Shown here piece after piece: positions 7,376-27,468 of a DNA stretch of 64,000 nt. Made by a program: the position numbers and the translations under genes. The DNA is from a virus. Lineage: Duplodnaviria > Caudoviricetes. How positions within the stretch are numbered: position 1 is the first letter of the stretch; each line of letters opens with the position of its first letter. Below the pieces are notes generated by a model. That model worked only from the letters and a program-made list of their open reading frames with translations, had not been told where the DNA came from and ran no database searches. The stretch covers positions 1 through 64,000 of IMG/VR virus record IMGVR_UViG_3300047159_000040. One strand, written 5' to 3'.

Positions 7376-8251
7376 ATGTTTCATAGATTTTTGCGAAGGA
7401 TCATGACATCAAAGAAAAGCTTTAAAAACTTATCCGAGATGCGGGTATCGTCTCTTTCTCTGAAAGAGACTGCCCAGTTGAAAGAAACCGGAGTTCTTGA
7501 CTTTGTGCAGTATAAGCAGTCTAACGGAAGCACGCCTATGATCAGAATCGGATATGGATACTCATCGTTTTACGATTCCACTGACGAAAGTGATCATATG
7601 GATCTCTGCCTGATTGATATGCTGAATGATAGAATCAAGTACTCCGGATGCTGCGATGTCGTGTCTCCTGTTAGATACGACGATCGCGAATACGATTTCA
7701 GAGAATACTCGTTCCAAAATGGCATCAAAAGCAAGCGCATCGCCGCATACTTGGCTAAAGTCCTTGTCGATAAATACGGAATGGCGATCGTGTATGATGG
7801 AAAATCATTCATGTTCGAGGAATTCGGATACCATCGCGAGATGATCCTCGTCGGGAAATCCGAAGTTGAAAAAACAAAGATGCTGATCATGGTAGCTGAT
7901 GGAAGAGTGCTGAACATCGATCACATCATATCGCTTAGAAAGCATTTGGTCTGTACGACGAGATATGAAAAAACATACAATCCGTTACGTAAGAAAGTTC
8001 TAGATCATAAGATAATCATGGCGACATTCGTATTCGGAGATTTACACGATAGCGCATGCGAAAAATGCAGCCCAAACAAAGTATGCCCGATGCATAGCGA
8101 CTTCGTTAGGCAGCATTACGGAGTGACCAACTTCTTTAGCTGCGAGCAAGATGCCGCTGAATTCTTCAAAGACAACGTTATCAGCCGTATAGCGCAATAC
8201 AACAAGCCGGCTGCCGATTCGATCGAGCTAAGCCTCAAAGTTTTAGTTTAG
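7376..8251 (+). CDS. family B hypothetical protein with a CxxC..CxxH motif
   Basis: 291-aa ORF with RBS GAGGAGG. Motifs IRIGYGYS and KYGMAIVYDG; C-terminus AADSIELSLKVLV. Confidence 0.8.
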   Translation: MFHRFLRRIMTSKKSFKNLSEMRVSSLSLKETAQLKETGVLDFVQYKQSNGSTPMIRIGYGYSSFYDSTDESDHMDLCLIDMLNDRIKYSGCCDVVSPVRYDDREYDFREYSFQNGIKSKRIAAYLAKVLVDKYGMAIVYDGKSFMFEEFGYHREMILVGKSEVEKTKMLIMVADGRVLNIDHIISLRKHLVCTTRYEKTYNPLRKKVLDHKIIMATFVFGDLHDSACEKCSPNKVCPMHSDFVRQHYGVTNFFSCEQDAAEFFKDNVISRIAQYNKPAADSIELSLKVLV

Positions 8252-9379
8252 CCTTAAGAAAGGAGGCACAATTATGTCAGATGATAGCCATACGATAACA
8301 TTCGTATCGAGAAAGACGTTCAAGCCGCTGTCGAATATGCTGGTGACGAAGATCAGTAAGCGGGACAAGCCCGAGCTAGAGGATATGGGGATTTTAAAAT
8401 AATTTCCGATCGCGAAGCAAAAGGAATCCCGTCAATCGTCAGAATAGGCTATGGGTATTCTAAGACCTATACGACCAATACCTATCACGATACCTATCCT
8501 GGCTTCTTCAAAGCGATCGACGCCAGGGCCAAATACGCAAACAGATGCTACATCGCAATGCCGGCATGCCATGGCGACGTTGATGCCAAGATCAATGACC
8601 GGCGCGGCTATGTCTATGGCTGCTATGCGAGCAACCGTCGCTTGACTGCATACATTGTCAATTACCTCGAAGAGAAATATGGCATGATCGCGGCGTTCGA
8701 TGGATACTCAGGCATGTTCAGAGATTTCGGGTATAAGCGAGAGCTGATCCTGATCGACAAAGAATTATTCAGCAAGATAAAGGTCGTTTTATACGACAGC
8801 AGCGAATCGTATGAGCTATACGAGATAAATGCAGACAATATAGAAGACGATCTTCAGATCGGAGTTTGCACGCTCGATGCCAGAATAGAATCAGAATGCC
8901 GCTAGATCATAAGATAATCATGGCGACATTCGTATTCGGAGATTTACACGATAGCGCATGCGAAAAATGCAGCCCAAACAAAGTATGCCCGATGCATAGC
9001 GACTTCGTTAGGCAGCATTACGGAGTGACCAACTTCTTTAGCTGCGAGCAAGATGCCGCTGAATTCTTCAAAGACAACGTTATCAGCCGTATAGCGCAAT
9101 ACAGCAAGCCGGCTGCCGATTCGATCGAGCTAAGCCTCAAAGTTTAGTTTAGCCTTAAGAAAGGAGGCACAATTATGTCAGATGATAGCCATACGATAAC
9201 ATTCGTATCGAGAAAGACGTTCAAGCCGCTGTCGAATATGCTGGTGACGAAGATCAGTAAGCGGGACAAGCCCGAGCTAGAGGATATGGGGATTTTAAAA
9301 ATAATTTCCGATCGCTAAGCAAAAGGAATCCCGTCAATCGTCAGAATAGGCTATGGGTATTCTAAGACCTATACGACCA
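8000..9379 (+). repeat. 478-bp direct repeat (8000-8477 and 8902-9379)
   Basis: Both copies run from CTAGATCATAAG to ATACGACCA. Four differences were seen by eye: two substitutions and two homopolymer indels. Confidence 0.9.
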
Positions 9380-16771: not shown

Positions 16772-16842
16772 TGATTTTCCTCAGACAATATCTCGTCATA
16801 ATCGATTGTTCGGGATGCCTTCTCTTTGCCGGAAATAAAAAA

Positions 16843-16880: not shown

Positions 16881-17294
16881 CTACTCGGCTTTCTTGGCTT
16901 CGACCGGCTCGGCGGCGACTTTGTCTTCCTTGGATTCTTTCTTCAAGGATTCTTCCTTGTCATGCGCTTCCTGGGCGGCTTTCATGTCATACTCGAGCTC
17001 GGCTTTGGCTTTGGCCTCGTTCTTCTGCGAGAGCCGCTCGGCCGACTGAAGCATCTGGAAGATGGTGTTGGCGAATTGGGCCTTAGCCTCCGCCGGGACG
17101 GAATCGGCATTGAACCCTTTGATGATGTCGGAGACGAAGTCGCGCATCGTGACGGAATCGGCGTCGGCGTACCACTTCCAAAGAAGGGAAACGGTACGGC
17201 GCCTCTGCTCGGCATTCATGGCAATATGAGACTTGCCATCCGGAGACAGCTCCGCGTTTTTGGTGATGAAATCGAACATGTCGTCGTAATCCAT
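16881..17294 (-). CDS. hypothetical protein
   Basis: 137-aa ORF with RBS GGAGG upstream and a charged C-terminus. Confidence 0.8.
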   Translation of the reverse strand: MDYDDMFDFITKNAELSPDGKSHIAMNAEQRRRTVSLLWKWYADADSVTMRDFVSDIIKGFNADSVPAEAKAQFANTIFQMLQSAERLSQKNEAKAKAELEYDMKAAQEAHDKEESLKKESKEDKVAAEPVEAKKAE

Positions 17295-17339: not shown

Positions 17340-19117
17340 CTAATGGATAGTCAGAGTTAGCGTGGTTCCGCTAAGAGACCCAGTCATATTAGCGGTATCG
17401 GCAGTTGCTACAGATATTCCGTTTTGTTTAAGATTTCCTAAGAAATTCCAGATATATGTAGAGTCACTGTACCAAGTTCCATCTGCGTTACATGGAGAAA
17501 AATATAGGCCATCTACTCCGTTTACGCATCCAATTCCACAATATTTTTCGCCTTGGTTATTAAGCATGATCTCAGCATTGTTATATGAATTAGATTGGGC
17601 GCTATTGAAAATTGGAGCAGCATTAAATTTTTGAGATGCTGTCCACGTTTGTGCGATTCCTAGCATGGCCAGGGTTTGCGACCACCCTAGATTAGCGTTT
17701 TGCGTGTTATAGCAAGAAACAACTGCCTTAGCGGTATCTCCAGCAGTACTTAAGCTCAATAGTCCAAGTTTGTCTTGGACTTTTATCCCAAATGAAGGGC
17801 CATAAGTAAGAATGTTAGAGGATTCACTAGCTTCAACTGAATTCCACAGGGCTTCTATCTTAGGACTGAAATCAGTACCAGATGGAAATAGCGATAGTAG
17901 ATTAGCGTTTGTCGATAGATCTCCAGCAAGACTGCCGAGCAGCGAAGTAAGTTCTTTTTCATGAACTACTTCTCCTTCGTACGGCTGATAGGGAAGGGGA
18001 TGGGAACCCTCGTTCAGCATAATGCTGGTAATTGATGCCCCATCTTTAAACCATAATCCTATCGATTTTGTCCCGCTCGGGATGATGAACGATGCTTGAT
18101 TCAATCCTGCGACTAATGGTAGCGACCCAGTGATTGAAGTAGTCGACCCTCCGCTCGGAGTGTAATTGACATGATAATCACCGGAAATGCTTGAATAGAA
18201 TGAGATTGAATGCTGGCCTGAAATAGTGGTCGATGGGATCAAAGTCATTTCTCCTCCGGCCTTTTCAACTTCATTGTCAGACTCCTTTGGCGAAAGGTTC
18301 GCGCTTCTGTCCGCCTCACTCTTCGCATACTCGAGTGCGTATGGCTGAATGCGAGCGAAATGAAGTGGATCATAAGTCTCAGTGGAAGATGACTTTGCTC
18401 GAATTTGTGCAAAGTAATTCCCTGAGAAAAGGAAATTCTTTATGTCGTCAATGGTAGCGGATGCTCCTGGATAGTAGATTTCAATCCAGTTTGAGTAGGA
18501 AGCGATGCTTCTATTGCTACCGGTTCCATAGTAAACGCTGGCTCTATTGCCTGATTGCCCATAATTCGAAATAACGGTATAGGTGTCGTAATACTTCCGA
18601 GGTGGAGCATATTCTTGACGAACTCATCGCTCGCGGTGGTGCGCTCGGAGGCGAGATCATCCACGTCCGGGACGTCCTTCCCGTTCTTTTGCAATCCGCC
18701 AGTGAAATTCTGCGCGGCTGCCCACGTATTCGGATTGGACAGATTGATCCCGATGGTTCCGGTGTCGGTGATCGTCCCTCCGGTGAGAGTGGCATCCGTG
18801 CTTATCGAAGATATCGAATGCTTGACGAACGCGTATCCGTCGTCATCGATGTACACCGGTGCTGTCGCATCGTCGCTCATGTCGTATTTCGTCTTTATCC
18901 CGCCCAGCTGCGAGACGCTGGCAGGCGCCAGTTTGTATTCGCCATCCTCCTGATAGAACCCCTCTCCGAGATTCTCCCTGATGATGTAGATGCCGTCGCT
19001 GTCCCAGGTATATGTCGTTCCATTGTATGTCACAGAGCCCGTCTTGGCCCCGTCTTTGTACAATGCGTCATATTCTTCTTTGGTGACGACGTAAATGCGC
19101 TTCTTGCCAGTTTCCAT
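17340..19117 (-). CDS. tail fibre / receptor-binding protein B (one gene split by a frameshift at ~18594)
   Basis: ORF 19117..18440 has the fibre-anchor N-terminus shared with the 27468 gene and QLGGIKT. After NMLHLG a shifted frame reads YYDTYTVISNY...TETYDPLHFARIQPYALEYAKSEADRSAN and runs in frame into ORF 18248..17340. Confidence 0.75.
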
Positions 19118-19138
19118 GATTTTGCTCGAAAGCGTTCG

Positions 19139-20203
19139 CTAGCCTAAAGCAACTGCTTTCCTTGCCGCCTTCAGTGTCGGGTACAGATACATTCTCTTGA
19201 TCTTCTCGGAATCGGAATTGTCGGCTTCGCCTTTCATGGACATGAGACGCCTAGCTAGGCTTTTAGGTATCTTCGTCCCTTTCCTGATGAATCCCATCAC
19301 TCTGAGCGCAGTCCTTCTCAGGTATTTGAAATTGCGCTTTCGTATCCTGGTCCATCCCCGGCAGACCTGATAGCCAACGAAATCGATCCTCTCTCCGACG
19401 ATGGCCCCTGATTTGTCGTCATAGGCCACTCTGATGACTTCCTCATTGCCGTGGATTGAGACGTTGAGCTTTGATTTAAGCATCGATCCTATGACGGCCT
19501 TCGCCAGAAGAAGCTTGCGTCTGCTGCCGTCCAGGATCTCTATGTTGTCGCAGTATCTTATGAGATGCCTGACCCGCATGGTCTCTTTGAGGTAATGGTC
19601 GACGGAGTCCAGATAGAAATTGGCCAGTTCCTGCGATGGATAGCATCCGAGGGGAAGGCCTATCTGAGTCGTGTCGATGATCTCTCCGAGGATATCCAAT
19701 ACGCGTTTGTCTCTGAATACCTTGGCGAGCATCTTTTTGAGAATGGCGTGATCGATCGAATCGTAGAAATGCCTGACGTCCAATTGAATCGAGTATCTCG
19801 TTCCTTTGGGGTCTCCCCTGACCATGGATTGCAGCACGTTCTTGGCGTAGATGACGCCTTTGACTTTCTTGCCGGAGCAGCTGTAGGCGTATTCCCGTCT
19901 CTGGAGGTAAGGCTCTATGACGCGCATCACCATATGATGGAATATCTGATCGTAGACGAATGGGGGTATCAGTATGTTTCTTGTCTTCATGCTCGGAAAA
20001 TCGACGATGGTCTCTTTGGTGTAGATCCCAAGGGAGTATCTGTGAAGGACGATATCCGTATAAACCTGCCGCTTGTTCATGAATGCCATCTTGACCGTCT
20101 TCCGGCCTGTCTTGCCTTTGGCGGCCTCGTTCAGGGCTTTCACGAAATTGCTGTAGCGATAGATCTTCTCGTATATGCCTTCGCTTATTCCGTATGATCT
20201 CAT
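19139..20203 (-). CDS. DGR reverse transcriptase
   Basis: 354 aa. RT motifs LDVRHFYDSIDH, GLPLGCYPSQELANFYL (DGR-type LGxxxSQ), RYCDN (YxDD position) and IDFVGY. No maturase or endonuclease domain; a TR/VR pair is adjacent. Confidence 0.95.
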   Translation of the reverse strand: MRSYGISEGIYEKIYRYSNFVKALNEAAKGKTGRKTVKMAFMNKRQVYTDIVLHRYSLGIYTKETIVDFPSMKTRNILIPPFVYDQIFHHMVMRVIEPYLQRREYAYSCSGKKVKGVIYAKNVLQSMVRGDPKGTRYSIQLDVRHFYDSIDHAILKKMLAKVFRDKRVLDILGEIIDTTQIGLPLGCYPSQELANFYLDSVDHYLKETMRVRHLIRYCDNIEILDGSRRKLLLAKAVIGSMLKSKLNVSIHGNEEVIRVAYDDKSGAIVGERIDFVGYQVCRGWTRIRKRNFKYLRRTALRVMGFIRKGTKIPKSLARRLMSMKGEADNSDSEKIKRMYLYPTLKAARKAVALG

Positions 20204-20359
20204 ATTGATACCTTGCGCTTCTTTCTTTTTACCGTACGGGCGTTTGCGCTGTCGCTACTGGTCCGCTTGACTTGGCAATATCTTAGGGTATGTACCCAAG
20301 GAATGCAGCATCTGTAATTAATGATGATAGTCTTAGGCATGAAGCGAATCCTGCTAAAG

Positions 20360-20470
20360 AGAAATGGCGGGCGGAGATGTTGATGTTGCCGTTGCCCCAA
20401 CCGTTGTTCAGGTTGAAACAGCCGACTGGACCCGCGTTGCCCCTGTTGTCAGCGTTACCACCGGCGAGGA
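20360..20470 (-). repeat. DGR template repeat (TR)
   Basis: 111 nt, rich in AAC codons (reads LAGGNADNRGNAGPVGCFNLNNGWGNGNINISARHF). It matches the VR at 20685-20796 with all differences at TR adenines. Confidence 0.95.
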
Positions 20471-20634
20471 AGATAACTCGGAAAACGTCAGCGCCCAGGT
20501 GATGCATCCCTATGCTATATTAAGTCCAAACTGTCGGCATGCATTCTATTTCCTAACGTCATCATGCTACCAGACGTCTCGGAGATAATCAACAGGAATT
20601 TATTTTTTTATTTCCCGAAGACGCGGATTTACTA

Positions 20635-20662
20635 CAGCGAAAGGGGAGATCCCCCTTCGCTG
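20635..20662 (-). promoter_or_regulatory. GC-rich hairpin just downstream of the VR/IMH (DGR homing hairpin and/or terminator)
   Basis: CAGCGAAGGGGG-ATCT-CCCCTTTCGCTG, a 12-bp stem with one G-T pair and a 4-nt loop, ~10 nt after the target stop codon. Confidence 0.7.
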
Positions 20663-20670
20663 CTTCCTCC

Positions 20671-23221
20671 CTAGTCAATCTCTAAGAAAGGGCGGGCGGA
20701 GAGGTCGATGCGGCCGCCGCCCCAACCGCTGGTCAGGCGTGAAACAGCCGACCGGACCCGCGTAGCCCCAGTCGTCAGCGCCACCACCGGCGAGGACTTC
20801 GTAATACGACGTGCCGTCTGATGTCCTTGCCGTGCTCCACGTATAGTCATCCATGCAGTATCTGCTTGATCCGACGGTTTGCGGCAGCATCTTGTTTCTG
20901 TAGAACTGAAGCGTCTGGGTCCATCCGCTCGTCGTCGGGGCGGCGAGCCCGGTTCGCTTCCAATCGCCTGACCCTGGGCTGTACGTGCAGCCTTTCTTGA
21001 AGACGATGAACTCATTCGACGCCGCGCTGTTGGCGTACTTCGACTCCATCGCGATGTCGTCCAAGGTGTTCCAGAACTTGCCGTACGGATTCTCGATGTA
21101 TCTCCAGCGATTGGCCCAGAGCCCGTCCCTCGACGCCCCGCCTATTCCGCTCGGGGACGGAAGGTCGTCCGTGGATCCCGCCGGGCACGCCTGGTTGCAT
21201 CCGATGTAGTATCCGGAGTTCGCCTTCCACGTCACGGCGTCTCCGTCGAACGTGACCTTGGTGTATCCGGAATCGGCGCTGAGCGCTTCGACGGCGGTGA
21301 CGTTTCTCCTCGTCCACAGCGTCGATCCCCATCCGAGATAGAAGGACACCGTCGACTGGTTGTACCCGGATGAGCTCAGCCAGGTGCTGACGAGGGTGCT
21401 GCTCGTGGGGACGACGACGTAATTGACGGCATCCGTCGAGTTATGCGACAGCAACGCCGTGTCCATGTATCGGTATTCGTCCTGGGTGTGGCCTTGGCCG
21501 AGCCAGTTCTGGATGTTGGCCATGCCGGACTCGATCATCATGAGGATGGCCCTGTCAGACCAGATGTCTATGGTCTCGGCTGGGCGGAGCTGTTTGTAGA
21601 TCGGAGACGAAGACGTCCCGACGTTAACGTATCCCATCTTGGACCAGGAATCGGCCGTCTGGTTGTACATGCTCTGCATATTGAAGTTGCAGTAGTTCGG
21701 CTGGCCGCTGACGCTGCCGAGATAAGTCGTGTCGCTGTTCTGGGCGGTGGTCAGTTGATACGCCCCGACGAGAAGGCCGGACGGGACATGCCCGTCTCTG
21801 GATGTGTAGTAAGGGACGAATCCTTTCCTCGGGGTCAGGCTCGCCATCGGATAGATGTTGGTTCCGTCTGTGTACACCCTGGTGTAATGCCTCGGGATGT
21901 AAACGAGATGGTTGTAGACGCCGCTGAGAGCCGTGCCTGAAGCATCGGTGTAGAACTGATAGTCGGCGGCTTTTATCTGACTGAGGATCGAGTCGTTGTC
22001 AAAGTCATTCGAGACGGCGGATCCGCCTTTCCTCGATATATTGGCAGTAGTCCTTCCGTAAGCGGCTCCCGTCCTGGTTCCCTTATCGCCAGTGCCAGCG
22101 GTCTCGCTTATGGACAGCCCGATGAAGTTATCGATGCCTTTTATGGATGACAGGTCGTACTTGTTGAGCATCTCGTTCTCATGAACTAGCTTCTCCTTCG
22201 TATGGCTGATAGGGAAGGGGATGGGAACCCTCATTAAGCATAATATTAGCTATAGGTTACGGTTATTCCAGATGTTGCTGCCGATAAAATGAATCCAAAC
22301 CTTATGAAGACTTTCACACGATTGCCTGGTGTAACAAACGAGAAATTATTTGAACCCATGTATGAAGATAGAACTTAACGGCGGTTGTCTGATGTCAAGG
22401 TCAAATGTACTGGTTATAGCAAGTATTTCCATTTACTGAATATGCATGCCGTTTCCTGATACAGATTACCCATATGACCAAGTAATATTTCGTGTTAGGT
22501 TTTAAAACCACATCAGAATAATATGTTTGCGAAGGAACATAATTTCGGAACACTTGCTCCAACATAGTAGTCGATATCAGTACCAGTAGAAAGAAGAGAT
22601 ATTGAATCGTTTGACTGCGACGAAATATTGACTCCGGAAAGGTTAGGCCAGCAGCCGATTGCGTTTCCGTTAAAATGATATATGTTGCTACTTCTGTCCG
22701 CCTCTTTCTTCGCGTACTCCAAAGCGTAGGGCTGAATCCGAGCGAAATGAAGCGGGTCGTAGGTCTCGGTATAAGAATAGGCGGATAGTTTGTATTGAAC
22801 GAAAATAGGGCATATAGACATGAAACCTTCCATCGAAGAAATATCATTATCTCCAACGGAAATATTTCCATTATCTTGAAAAGTGATTGATTTGTTTTGT
22901 GCCCAATAAAGTTCAGCGTAGAAAACTTTGTAATTTTTGTTAACACTAGAATCGATAAATGATCCATAAGTAACGCCGTTAATCATAGGGCTTGCGATAT
23001 GTCGCTCAAGTGGCGAGAATTGACTTGGAACAAACCACCAGTTGGATTTAAAAATCGCGGTGATAAGGTTGGATGAGTCTCCAATCTTTAAATACCCCGT
23101 CTGTCTTGTCACCGACGTAGTTCCCATTGTCGTCTATCGTATAAGTGTCGAATGCCCCAAGATGGAGCATCTCGTTGACTGACCCTTTGGCATACGTTCT
23201 GATCTCTTTGATATCGTTCAT
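20671..23221 (-). CDS. DGR target: tail fibre / receptor-binding protein A with a C-terminal CLec (FGE/Mtd-like) domain; several frameshifts as assembled
   Basis: RBS GAGGAG and ATG 23221 (MNDIKEIRTYAKGSVNEMLHLGAFDTYT). It continues via ORFs 22513..23127, 22401..22967 and 20675..22234 (NRWRYIENPYGKFWNTLDD...VLAGGGADDWGYAGPVGCF). Frameshifts at ~23112, ~22550-22250, 22189 and ~20739. Confidence 0.8.
20685..20796 (-). repeat. DGR variable repeat (VR) at the 3' end of the target gene
   Basis: About 16 changes versus the TR, all at A positions, one of them including a 1-nt insertion (TR TTC-AA-CCTG vs VR TTC-ACG-CCTG). Confidence 0.95.
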
Positions 23222-23393
23222 TGTCGATTCTCCTCGGTGGCTCGTTTTTTCGGGGCGGCGGGCGGGGGCTCATAACGGCTTACATGAAACGGAATTAAAA
23301 ATAAAAGCCGTGCTGTGAGTTGTTTGTCGTCATCCGTATCATCACATAATCTATTGTTAAGGGTAGAATTCGTGCTTAAGGTGGTCTATGTGA

Positions 23394-23855
23394 CCTTCAT
23401 TTGGGATAAAAGTCCAAGACAAACTTGGACTATTGAGCTTAAGTACTGCTGGAGATACCGCTAAGGCAGTTGTTTCTTGCTATAACACGCAAAACGCTAA
23501 TCTAGGGTGGTCGCAAACCCTGGCCATGCTAGGAATCGCACAAACGTGGACAGCTCAGCAAACATTCAATCAGCCTTCGGTATTCAATAGTTACATAGCA
23601 CTAGCTAATGATGTTCCAGGAAACAGTGAGACGTACTATGGACTTTATACGGATAAAATTTCAGGAGTAGGAACTGCTACGTGCTTGTCATCTACTGATA
23701 ATTATTTCGGATTGATGCGGGCCGGGCATTATGGAGTTAGGCTTCTAATACATTCCGGATATCTTCCAACCGTTGAGCTTCCTACTGAGAGCGGATCTTT
23801 GCTAATAGGATCGTTAAACGGTACTACTCTAACCGTAACTCTTCCTTCAGCATAA
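23394..23855 (+). other. silent alternative tail-fibre C-terminal cassette
   Basis: No RBS or ATG. It begins with the 161-bp IR arm, then ~100 codons ending IGSLNGTTLTVTLPSA, compared with TGSLSGTTLTLTIH at the end of fibre B. Confidence 0.8.
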
Positions 23856-23892
23856 AAATAAGCGGCAGGCCATTACGGCTTGCCGCTTTTGT
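23854..23892. terminator. bidirectional terminator
   Basis: AAGCGGCAGGCC-atta-c-GGCTTGCCGCTTT with A/T runs on both sides, between convergent ORFs. Confidence 0.75.
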
Positions 23893-26800
23893 TACGCAAC
23901 GTTATAGACGATGTTGAACTGGACGACGTCGCTTTGGACCCAGCCATACATCCTGACGTAATCGTATGCCCCGCTCGATGACACGTCCATCGGCATCATG
24001 GCGTTTCCGTCGCTTGTGACGATTCCCATGATCCCGCCTCTGTACACGGCGCTCAATGCCGTTCCGGCGGCGTTGACCATCGCCGAATGCGGAAGCGTTA
24101 TGACCGGGGCGGACGCCGACGTCGAATACGACACCGTGACCGTTCCCATGACCTTGACGATCTGAGACGCCGGCACGCAATATGCCGTCACCGTTCCCGA
24201 GCAGTTGCTGAGAGTGGGCATGATCGCGTTGCTGGCGGCCAGATACCTGGACGCGGCGACTCCGCCCAGCGACGCCGAGTTTACGGCGGTTCCGTCGTAT
24301 GAGAGATACGACGCGTTGACGTTGGATAGGCCATTGTAAGGCGATGTCGTGACGACCGATCCGTTCGAGTACCCGTATACCGTGAAAGTGCTCATCGATG
24401 ATGCCGTGAGATACGCCGTCACCGTCCCGGCGGTGACGTGCCCGTAGGAATCGACGTTGATCCCGGAGTTGATCCCCGTCCTCGGGGTGTATGTGGCGTG
24501 GCTGATCGTCACCGTGTTGGGGTTGGCGTTTGCTCCGATGACGCTGACTCCGGCGTTGGCGCCGATGATCGACACGCCATAATCGGATCCGAGCTGGGTC
24601 CCTCCGGCCGTGATCGGCCTGTAGGACGACGCGATGGTGACGACCCCGGCCGCCGAGGTCAGAGTGACGTGGAGCCCTTCGGAAATATTTAAATAATTCA
24701 GATCGGAGCTGGCTCTGACGGTTGCGTTGTTCACGCGGATCTCGCGCATGGCCAGGAAGTTGCCCGAAGTGTATCCCGAATCCTCCAATCCGACGATCTC
24801 GGTGCTCCACATCGGGATGTGATTGTCGGACCAAAGCGACTGCGACGTCCTGACGACGAGCGGCATCAGAGTGTCTATCGAGGAGGTGATGCTCCCATCG
24901 GCCAGCCCGGAGGAGATGTCGCCGATATAAGCGGTTCCGGTGCTGTCCCATCCGAAGAACCCGTCATTGGTTCCGTCGTAGAGAGGAACCCTGGTTCCGA
25001 CCATCGACGTGAGGGCGGCGGTGTTTCCTCCGGCCAGGGTTATGACATAATCGGCGACTGAGACGTTCGTCTTGTTGATGACGTTCGAGGATCCGCTGAT
25101 GTTCAGGGATCCGGTGATCGTGAGATCTCCGTCATACACGTTGGTACCGGATGCCTTGAGATACCCGGTGGCGACGGCTGCCGTCCCGGCGTTGGCGGCG
25201 TAAGAAACGGATAGCTCGCTTTCGGATTTATTATTTAATTTCCCCGCGCTGGCGGCATACACGGCTGACACCGCCGTGCCATTCGATGCCAGGAAAGAGG
25301 CTGCCGAATATGACGCGGCCGTTCCCAAAGCGGACTTTAGGGCATATGACGAAGCGGCGACTCCGCCGAGCGACGCGGCCGTTCCGGCCGATGCCGAGTA
25401 GATGGCCGACAGAGCGGTTCCGTTAGAGGCCAATAGATTCATCGTCCTTCCGGCTGTAACGTTGTATATCGCCGTGGCCACTAGAGTGGTCGATGTGGCG
25501 GAGGTATACGAATACGTGTTGATCGTCATCGCCAGCAGCGACGCGATCTTGGCATAGCTGGCCGCAGCGATTCCTCCGAGGGAATCAGCATTGGCGGCAG
25601 CTCCGGCATTATCGGCGTATCTAACGGATATGTTTGCCTGAGTCGTGGATGAGCTTACCCCGGTTCCGCCATTAACTACCGACAGCTTTCCAGCAAGAGT
25701 GAGAGTGGAATCGGAAACTCCGATCCCCGTGCTTCCTGAGAATGCGAGATCCGCGGTGGTGACGACAAGGCTCTTGGCCGATGCCAAAGCGGTGGCTGTT
25801 CCGGCAGCGGTGGCGTATCTCACGGAGATATCCGCTTGGGTGGTTGACGAATTGACCCCGGTTCCGCCGCGATCGACTGAAAGAACCCCGGTTGCTGATC
25901 CAAGGGCATGGAGATTGGCCGTGCTCTCGCCGCCGACCGTTCCAGCGTTGCCGGCATAAGACACGCTGAGAAGGCTGGCGGACGTCACGCCATACGCATA
26001 ACTAGATGATACTGCATATGGGACCGTGATATCGGTGACCGACGCCGAGTAGTTTGCGAAATGAAGCTGATTATTAGACGACGTTAGGGAAATATTTTTT
26101 AAATCCGTGAAAGCGTCGGAGATATTGCTGTTGGTGCCATCGAACCATCCATTCGTATCAGGGAACATCTCCTTAAGGAGAGCGTCCATGTACGCCTTGT
26201 CAGGCTCATTGCCCGCGCCGAAGGCGGCGGTTAAATCAACCCACACAACATCGGTTAAATAAATCGGAGTCCAGTCGGATGTACGAGGATCGTCGGAAAA
26301 TACATAGTTAGTGGAGGGCCCAGCTGTCATGATTCCAGACAAGGTTTGCCACTCGCTGCTGCCATTACTATGTAGAACAAAATCGTAAGTAGTTCCATTA
26401 TACCCCAAAAGCCTTAATGAAGTTGAATCCGACTTCAATCTCTGGCGAACATAAACCTTATGGCCTGAAATATTCTTCAACGAATCCATTGAACTAGAAT
26501 GTGCTGTAGCATATTGTCTTTTAGCAGTATATGCAAGAATATTATTAGATACCGACATCGTAACACCGTTCTGCAATCCATCCCGTCGTCCCGTTAGCGA
26601 AATTACCGTTTGTGACAAGATTGGTAAGCTTGAATCTGTTGGCGTGGGGATCCACTTCCGTCCACTTCGCGACGTTGTTGATATGAACGGCGTCGATTAG
26701 CTTGTTCGTCGATGAATCGAACTTAGCGACGTATCCATCGCTCATGTCGGATCTGGTGGCGATCTTCTGAAGATTCGTCGATGCGGACGTAAGATCGATG

Positions 26801-27468
26801 CTTCCGTTGCTTAGAGCGACGTCTCCGACGTATGCGAAGCCATCTTTGTCGTATACCATGGCTCCATAGTTCGTCCCGTCGTATTTAGGGGTTACCAATC
26901 CTGCCGGGCTCGTGAGAGCCGCGGTGTTTCCGGACGCTACCTCGATGAGGTTGTCTTTGATTGCGAGGTTGTTTGAGCTGATCGTCGTGGTCCCGCCTTT
27001 GATGACGAGATTCCCTCCGACGGTGACGTCCCCAGAAGTAATGACCGATGCGGCGTTGACAGCCCCGGTAACCGTCAGGCTGCCGGTTAGGGTGTCCGTG
27101 GTGTTCTTTAGAGCGGTGTATCCGAGAGCGGATGACACGGCAGCCGCCGTGATGTCGGTCCATGGGACGTTGACATAAGCGTTTCCGCTAGAGTCAAGAG
27201 TTACTTTGTAGTTCCTAGACGCGGATGAAGACACGAATCCGGTTTTGATTCCGCCAAGCTCGGAATCCTGGGCCGATTTGATGCTGACGACTCCGAATGA
27301 TGAGCTGATGCCAGATCCGTAGAGCTCAGGAGGGATGACGTAGAGAGCCGACGTGTTCCATGAGTATGAAACGCTGTTTTTTGTTATGGTGCCGTCTTTG
27401 GCGCCTTTGTCGTACAGAGTCTCGTAGTTTGCCCGAGATATGTAATAGATCTTCTTGTAATCAGACAT
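23892..27468 (-). CDS. long tail fibre protein (one gene split by a frameshift at ~26571)
   Basis: ORFs 27468..26545 and 26618..23892 overlap at NGNFANGTTGW(IA)/NGVTMSVSNN. Features include SELGGIKT, S/T/A/G-rich repeats (SVxxGGTGVxSSTTQAxISVRYA x2; LASNGTAxSAxYxASAG x2) and a carbohydrate-binding-like module (VDLTAAFGAGNEP). Confidence 0.75.

Follow-up and report, generated by a model that had tools for sequence, protein, structure and literature searches.

We analysed a tail-fibre locus at positions 17340-23855 of a 64,000-nt stretch of viral DNA (hereafter the window), which forms the first 64 kb of the 145,948-bp contig of IMG/VR record IMGVR_UViG_3300047159_000040 (Duplodnaviria; Caudoviricetes). 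The habitat of this phage is wastewater or sludge. CheckV estimates the contig at ~57% completeness, and Pfam matches elsewhere on it, comprising a Gp23 capsid protein, a prohead protease, T4 baseplate, a divergent family-B polymerase and DnaB together with an RNA polymerase domain, PhoH, DAC and TnpB, point to a jumbo phage with a T4-type capsid. The locus holds two tail-fibre genes, here called fibre A and fibre B, a diversity-generating retroelement (DGR) and a perfect inverted repeat, outside which lie two opposed, alternative fibre tips. Our analysis indicates that this arrangement is probably a recombination-driven tip-swap cassette within a very mosaic fibre locus.

The inverted repeat consists of a left arm at 17638-17798 on the minus strand and a right arm at 23394-23554 on the plus strand. 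A repeat search and alignment found the arms identical at 161/161 positions, and self-BLAST of the contig (145,948 bp) showed this long inverted repeat to be the only one. The homology ends abruptly on the inner side of the arms (17798/23394) and fades on the tip side, where alone a weaker similarity continues to 17602/23590 (17602-17798 against 23394-23590, 197 nt, 93% identity). The left arm encodes PSFGIKVQDK...IAQTWTA in fibre B; immediately before the right arm stands an in-frame TGA (23391-23393), so the cassette that begins there has no start. About 5.6 kb separate the arms and contain the 5' part of fibre B, the reverse transcriptase (RT) and template repeat (TR) of the DGR, fibre A with its variable repeat (VR), and a promoter-like motif. 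When fibre B codons 1-150 (18248 to 17799) are joined to 23394-23855, the product is an open, in-frame hybrid of 303 codons. A preliminary description of the locus had reported the perfect repeat, the set of features that it brackets and an inversion that would link fibre B in frame to the other tip; the first two were reproduced, and the third holds on paper. The arm also contains a palindrome, GTCCAAG-TTTGT-CTTGGAC, near its inner end (17762-17780, mirrored at 23412-23430). On inspection of the arm, this 7-5-7 palindrome was the only possible crossover site noticed.

Tip A (17340-17637, minus strand), ~99 aa long, is the C-terminus with which fibre B is expressed. Its counterpart on the plus strand, the alternative tip (23555-23855), is silent, has no start and spans ~100 aa. 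The tips share 55% identity in protein and 51% in DNA, compared with 100% for the arms, and their ends read ...TGSLSGTTLTLTIH and ...IGSLNGTTLTVTLPSA. The alternative tip maintains 100 open codons in DNA of 41% GC, and a tblastn paralogy search found just these two tip cassettes on the contig. Tip A aligns with a conserved knob family (...GGTxTGxLxVNxPIFGY...GIG...FGPCNAxGTW...), some members of which match PHROG tail-fibre families, whereas the alternative tip carries the entry motif of this family and is divergent thereafter. An AlphaFold model of the arm plus tip A, built on a 12-row alignment, reached a pLDDT of 57, too low to base a fold search on, and an Atlas feature search with the tip gave weak leads to gp34/gp37-like fibre families (0.87-0.91). 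Behind the alternative tip, between it and the convergent 908-aa gene, lies a two-way intrinsic terminator (23860-23893, both strands). A consensus terminator scan missed this element and folding confirmed it, the hairpin at 23860-23888 plus its U-run giving -26.2 kcal/mol (z -5.5) on the plus strand and the same terminator -20.4 kcal/mol (z -3.9) on the minus strand. Both the pair of different ~100-aa tips with similar ends and the terminator after the silent one had already been noted in the preliminary description, and both are confirmed here. Two further elements were seen just ahead of the cassette, namely a Shine-Dalgarno-like AAGGTGG followed by an ATG-TGA start-stop pair directly before the right arm (23379-23393), and a weak sigma-70-like site on the plus strand (23341-23369) directed into the silent cassette.

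We aligned Logan contigs from four wastewater/sludge runs of different studies (X1-X4) to the locus. These are assembled contigs and not raw reads, from which frequencies, rare orientations and absence cannot be judged; uncovered stretches in X1-X3, such as 17513-18708 in X3 and 22327-22613, are no evidence in themselves. The window carries two arm junctions, a (tip A-arm-17799...) and b (...23393-arm-alternative tip), and a flipped genome would carry c (tip A-arm-23393...) and d (17799...-arm-alternative tip). Junction d is present in X1, in a 626-nt contig of depth 9.7 that runs from 23829 to 23394 and then from 17799 to 17988, with zero mismatches over the 436 nt of arm and tip (23394-23829). 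It is also present, at depth 7.8, in X2, which comes from a different study than X1. Junction b occurs in X3, where a Logan contig covers 23361-23829 with zero mismatches. The predicted hybrid of fibre B 5' part, arm and alternative tip exists in nature, and junction d in X1 and X2 together with junction b in X3 shows that in nature the segment is attached to the alternative tip by either end. Two technical explanations were ruled out: the joints in X1-X4 are not repeat-alignment artefacts, having unique sequence of 190 nt and 275 nt on their two sides, and the left junction (a) is not a chimera, as strains with tip A share only 15 nt with the arm.

The DGR is located inside the bracketed segment and has fibre A as its target, as proposed earlier; the positions of the RT, TR and VR and the adenine-specific mismatches bear this out. 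The RT (354 aa, 19139-20203, minus strand) matches phrog_1423 (3e-68) and carries LGCYPSQ, which fits the [LIV]GxxxSQ motif of the DGR clade. Its match to Pfam RVT_1 is weak (E 2.2e-06, 28 bits, under the 29.6-bit cut-off). The TR was located by repeat search at 20360-20470 (minus strand), and the VR (20685-20796, minus strand) forms the 3' end of the 519-aa open reading frame (ORF) of fibre A. All 16 TR/VR mismatches in the 111-nt core fall at TR adenines, as do 16 of the 17 VR sites that differ between or within X1-X4, and the flanks hardly vary. In natural populations this DGR is active. The catalytic box of the RT reads YCDN instead of the usual YxDD; nonetheless, the VR varies at TR adenines across samples. 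Between the VR and the RT we found no plausible ORF for an accessory gene of the Avd or HRDC type, only frames overlapping the TR, and such a gene may lie elsewhere. Near relatives of the RT numbered one, on a 1.3-kb contig. Additionally, X1 and X2 contain a joint from 19409 to 20524 that leaves out 1,114 bases, among them the TR and most of the RT, at depth 24-40 compared with 3-12 inside the RT; its shorter side spans only 29-30 nt. This joint suggests presence and absence of the DGR among near-identical strains.

The reading frames of both fibre genes are interrupted in the window. The body of fibre B upstream of the arm (17799-19117, minus strand) falls into two pieces, a 225-aa ORF (19117-18440) and the beginning of a 302-aa ORF (from 18248). 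Frames and contigs of X1, X2 and X4 correct the preliminary description here: its fibre B makes up only the 3' end of a longer gene (19117 to 17340) that two extra bases split in the contig. These bases, at 18594/5, are absent from the X1, X2 and X4 contigs, and their removal fuses the 225-aa and 302-aa ORFs into a 591-aa gene. The N-terminal ~100 residues of this longer gene resemble those of the ORF at 27468-26545, and the similarity probably reflects a shared anchor domain. Nearby, the 307-aa and 908-aa ORFs (23892-27468) overlap by 74 nt in different frames, and the N-terminus of the 307-aa ORF is 36% identical to the start of fibre B; they may represent a third long fibre gene, perhaps also split. 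Fibre A (20675-22234, minus strand) is a 519-aa ORF that matches the tail protein family phrog_5302 (1.3e-17). Its fragmented 5' part (22235-23221, minus strand), recognised by three-frame translation, the direct repeats D1/D4 and tblastn, is paralogous to the fibre B body, and this 5' kilobase is broken over three frames. One base at 20738-40, within the VR, is absent from the X1, X3 and X4 contigs, and its removal restores the TR-collinear reading ...GCFxLTSGWGGGRIDLSARPFLEID*. Another base, at 22187-9, is absent from all four runs, and without it ...IMLNEGSHPLPYQPYEGE is joined to VHENEM... of fibre A. Each of these three insertions (of 2, 1 and 1 bases) interrupts a fibre reading frame that is otherwise whole; they may be errors of the consensus, in a locus that varies between strains, or true defects of the genome.

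At the head of the operon, within the segment, stands the promoter-like motif AACAATAGATTAT (23346-23358, minus strand). The corresponding motif AACAATNGATTAT has 16 matches in the window compared with 1.6 expected from shuffles, and a further copy lies at 16798-16810, directly before the 1066-aa gene. The 137-aa gene (16881-17294, minus strand) adjoins tip A, here as in the related contigs described below, and its product gave no lead in Pfam, PHROG or Atlas. Between the fibre B stop and this gene, an extended -10 of the TGnTATAAT type (TGATATAAT, minus strand, 17329-17321) suggests a promoter for the 137-aa gene that would be independent of the orientation of the segment. With a motif copy of its own before the 1066-aa gene and this extended -10 before the 137-aa gene, a flip need not silence the genes downstream.

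Comparison with related contigs revealed extensive mosaicism. From 17652 downward, the window shares 99.9% identity with two JGI contigs, L003 and L004, over a stretch that takes in tip A and the genes of 137, 1066 and 813 aa and continues past them. Upstream of this point the two contigs carry a different fibre body in a 266-aa protein (P0002), whose start resembles part of the 225-aa ORF and whose tip, among the relatives, is 94-100% identical to tip A; farther upstream, their DNA is unrelated to the window and includes a holin. The breakpoint between body and tip A falls within the QTWTA codons at the distal end of the arm (17652), and QTWTA-like motifs occur in other modules, for example NTWAAAQNF in the 225-aa part. 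The module shuffling proposed in the preliminary description is evident here, since both contigs share tip A on another fibre body. Further joints in the contigs of the runs suggest recombinants between the paralogous fibre A and fibre B blocks. Moreover, a 479-bp direct repeat (8000-8477 and 8902-9379, 99% identical) is present in two copies in the window and in one copy in L003, which makes it an insertion or deletion polymorphism mediated by the repeat. Recombination at repeats and linkers clearly operates in this lineage. For a comparison of orientation, searches of IMG/VR for related loci with fibre B, the 908-aa neighbour and the RT as queries returned only unrelated or distant loci (L001, L002) that have no repeat. 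Searches for the arm with the alternative tip had no hit in JGI metagenome contigs or in 5.8 billion proteins, and blastn against GenBank phages gave no match.

Recombinase families were searched in six frames over the whole contig, outside which ~43% of the genome lies. No match was obtained in the 145,948 bp, or ~57% of the genome, to PF00239 (resolvase/invertase), PF07508 (large serine recombinase domain), PF00589 (phage integrase; tyrosine recombinase) or PF01548 (IS110/Piv transposase, DEDD), and AAA_24 had only a weak match, in a DnaB-like ORF. The absence of an invertase, earlier noted for the window, extends to 146 kb; as ~43% of the genome is missing, this absence is not decisive. The contig also carries two 1.3-kb direct copies of an element (71980-73286 and 123040-124340, 99% identical) and a 203-bp partial copy (102270-102472). 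One ORF of this set, which includes 71997-72752, matches a Cas12f1-like TnpB domain, the element ORF being 251 aa long in the 72-kb copy and 448 aa in the 123-kb copy. TnpB was considered as an invertase and ruled out, being an RNA-guided nuclease with copies at a distance of 50-100 kb.

We propose that fibre B and the start-less, 5'-truncated alternative tip, which share the 161-bp identical coding stretch in opposite orientation, together form a tip cassette. A crossover anywhere in this stretch, mediated by general homologous recombination through host RecA or a phage function, would invert the 5.6-kb segment with its promoter-like motif, fibre A, the DGR and the fibre B body. In the inverted state, fibre B would end in the alternative tip and stop at the terminator at 23860-23893, tip A would become the silent cassette, and the DGR would be carried along unchanged. 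Several observations support such a homology-driven switch. The arms are perfect, in contrast to the 51% DNA identity of the adjoining tips. The cassette is cut exactly at the arm, with a TGA before it and a strong terminator after it, and the tip frame is still open. The hybrid is found in X1 and X2, and no site-specific recombinase was detected in 146 kb. Furthermore, other strain differences in the lineage are repeat-mediated, as with the 479-bp repeat that is single-copy in L003. We infer that the segment can flip in this genotype, that the flip would be reversible and driven by homology, and that the two tips would address different receptors. We estimate the probability that the locus is a homology-driven tip-swap cassette at about one half. 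A stronger version, in which a lytic jumbo phage possesses a recombinase-free phase switch and an operon with its promoter and an active DGR flips between two tips lying outside it, appears doubtful to us.

Several findings weigh against an operating switch. Of the two orientations expected earlier, the predicted junction d was found in X1 and X2, but the reciprocal junction c was seen in 0/4 runs, where contigs alone do not allow absence to be judged, and no run showed both states. Junction a had no independent support in X1-X4. The contigs of X1, X2 and X3 cross the arm unbroken, and such passage in a k=31 de Bruijn graph means only one context for the arm per sample; also missing from X1 are 23188-23393 and, at 90% identity, the 908-aa gene. 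The strains in X1-X3 appear to be one-arm, 'locked' mosaic variants and not flipped copies of the window genome, a view that follows from the single arm context and the missing neighbouring sequence in X1, so that the inverted repeat could be a by-product of module exchange. In addition, the silent cassette is missing from the strains that dominate X2 (66x) and X4 (28x). These show a joint from 23388 to 23800, a 411-base deletion that takes away the right arm and all but the last 56 nt of the alternative tip and leaves the terminator in place. This deletion variant is present in X3 as well, and the missing cassette in the dominant X2 and X4 strains indicates that it is dispensable. RecA, RecT, ERF and YqaJ were not found in the 145,948-bp contig, and host RecA or the missing part of the genome may provide such a function. 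With fibre B split by two bases and fibre A fragmented, the genome may also be partly decayed or mis-called. Of the three stacked diversification mechanisms put forward in the preliminary description, DGR activity, module shuffling and the in-frame geometry are supported; this support does not extend to flipping within one population.

In the main rival account, the locus is a static mosaic, its inverted repeat a by-product of module exchange under no selected or frequent switching. The silent arm and alternative tip would be the remnant of an older fibre end beside its terminator, and the fibre B body with its arm would have been imported at the QTWTA linker from a strain carrying fibre B, arm and alternative tip. 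Strains with one arm do occur in either state (X3 with the silent arm only, X1 and X2 with the expressed arm only), and the strains that dominate X2 and X4 carry a deletion of the cassette. In L003 and L004, the body is swapped exactly at the distal end of the arm, at 17652. The truncation point and the module boundary alone would explain the limits of the arm, and its 100% identity is to be expected if both copies derive from one 99.9%-identical gene pool. Nevertheless, an inverted, in-frame and open cassette placed before a terminator requires that two copies of the arm underwent at least one inversion in the past, recombination is to be expected of a perfect 161-bp inverted repeat in replicating phage DNA, and the inversion product is a gene known in nature. 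We regard the static account as possible and somewhat improbable.

It is improbable, in our assessment, that the segment is inverted site-specifically by an enzyme of the Gin/Cin/Hin or shufflon type, whose gene would lie in the host or in the ~43% of the genome outside the contig and which would act at a short site within the arm, for example near the palindrome at 17762-17780. Serine-invertase sites have a 2-bp core, which the 5-nt spacer of the palindrome does not resemble. Moreover, none of PF00239, PF00589, PF07508 and PF01548 matched in 146 kb. In known systems the invertase adjoins the segment. This explanation draws its appeal from the opposed alternative tips, which follow the inversion logic of the Mu G and P1 C tail fibres (bioRxiv 10.1101/2022.07.24.501295), from the rule that programmed fibre inversions, which are common in bacteria, normally lie beside a recombinase (PMC9881135), and from a contig that is 57% complete and has a palindrome near the inner end of the arm. 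An assembly artefact, with the arms collapsed or mis-joined or the orientation of the segment arbitrary, is very improbable. The right junction (23361-23393 with arm and tip) is reproduced in an X3 contig without a mismatch, the small overlap of tip-A strains with the arm argues against a chimeric left junction, unique sequence lies on four sides, and a mis-oriented segment would still leave a real inverted repeat. On the other side, three indels in the locus are absent from the contigs of other runs, the left junction lacks independent support, and the k-mers of a short-read assembler alone cannot orient a segment between 161-bp arms.

The locus resembles Mu G/Gin and P1 C/Cin, with their relatives e14 and p15B Min, in its opposed C-terminal receptor-binding tips, constant body and single late promoter, and the opposed tips here do join in frame to one constant part. 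In contrast to Mu and P1, the constant body, the promoter, a second fibre gene and the DGR lie inside the segment and the tips outside it; there is no chaperone gene paired with the alternative tip, no serine invertase was found in 146 kb, and the 161-bp perfect coding arms have no recognised crossover site. In P1, the inverted repeats of the C segment measure ~0.6 kb and end in cix sites; long arms by themselves do not set the locus apart, and the earlier statement that classical invertases use only short sites was too strong. Anabaena cyanophages, including A-1(L) and A-Lf14, form inverted-repeat-flanked isomers of a ~30-kb segment that lack a dedicated recombinase; both isomers were proven by PCR and read mapping, and recombination-prone replication was proposed as the driver (bioRxiv 10.64898/2026.02.14.705889). 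Our locus shares with them a phage segment flanked by inverted repeats with no obvious invertase. No gene is rebuilt in the cyanophages, whereas here a flip would rebuild a fibre gene in frame, and junctions b and d were seen in separate runs. As for features expected of homology-driven isomerisation, a long perfect inverted repeat is present and no dedicated recombinase was found within 57% of the genome, but a phage recombination function (RecA/UvsX, or an annealing protein with an exonuclease) was not found in the contig.

The DGR resembles those of Bordetella BPP-1 (Mtd) and the Bacteroides Hankyphage in its [LIV]GxxxSQ RT with an adjacent TR, in a VR that closes a tail gene at its 3' end, and in differences specific to adenines, at which populations vary too. 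It differs from them in that no Avd-like gene was seen, in its YCDN in place of YxDD, and in its position between inverted-repeat arms that belong to a neighbouring fibre gene. The occurrence of the same tip on different bodies, with a breakpoint at a short conserved motif (QTWTA), recalls the modular exchange of T-even gp37/gp38 and lambdoid stf. Unlike in those phages, two tips reside in one genome in inverted orientation, and the exchange could be intramolecular. In the literature searched, no DGR was reported to lie within an invertible fibre segment.

Even if static, the locus offers a well-resolved case of fibre mosaicism, with the same tip on different bodies and with strains of 99.9% identity that differ in whether they carry cassettes and the DGR. 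Should the flip prove real, a host-range switch would arise from a duplicated coding stretch and general recombination, with a DGR nested inside it. Inverton searches that rely on short repeats next to an invertase would overlook such switches, and the search space in viral metagenomes would widen. A single phage genome would then combine a binary choice of tip, adenine hypermutation of a second fibre and linker-mediated module exchange, a natural layering of receptor-binding diversification that could be copied for engineered host-range libraries.

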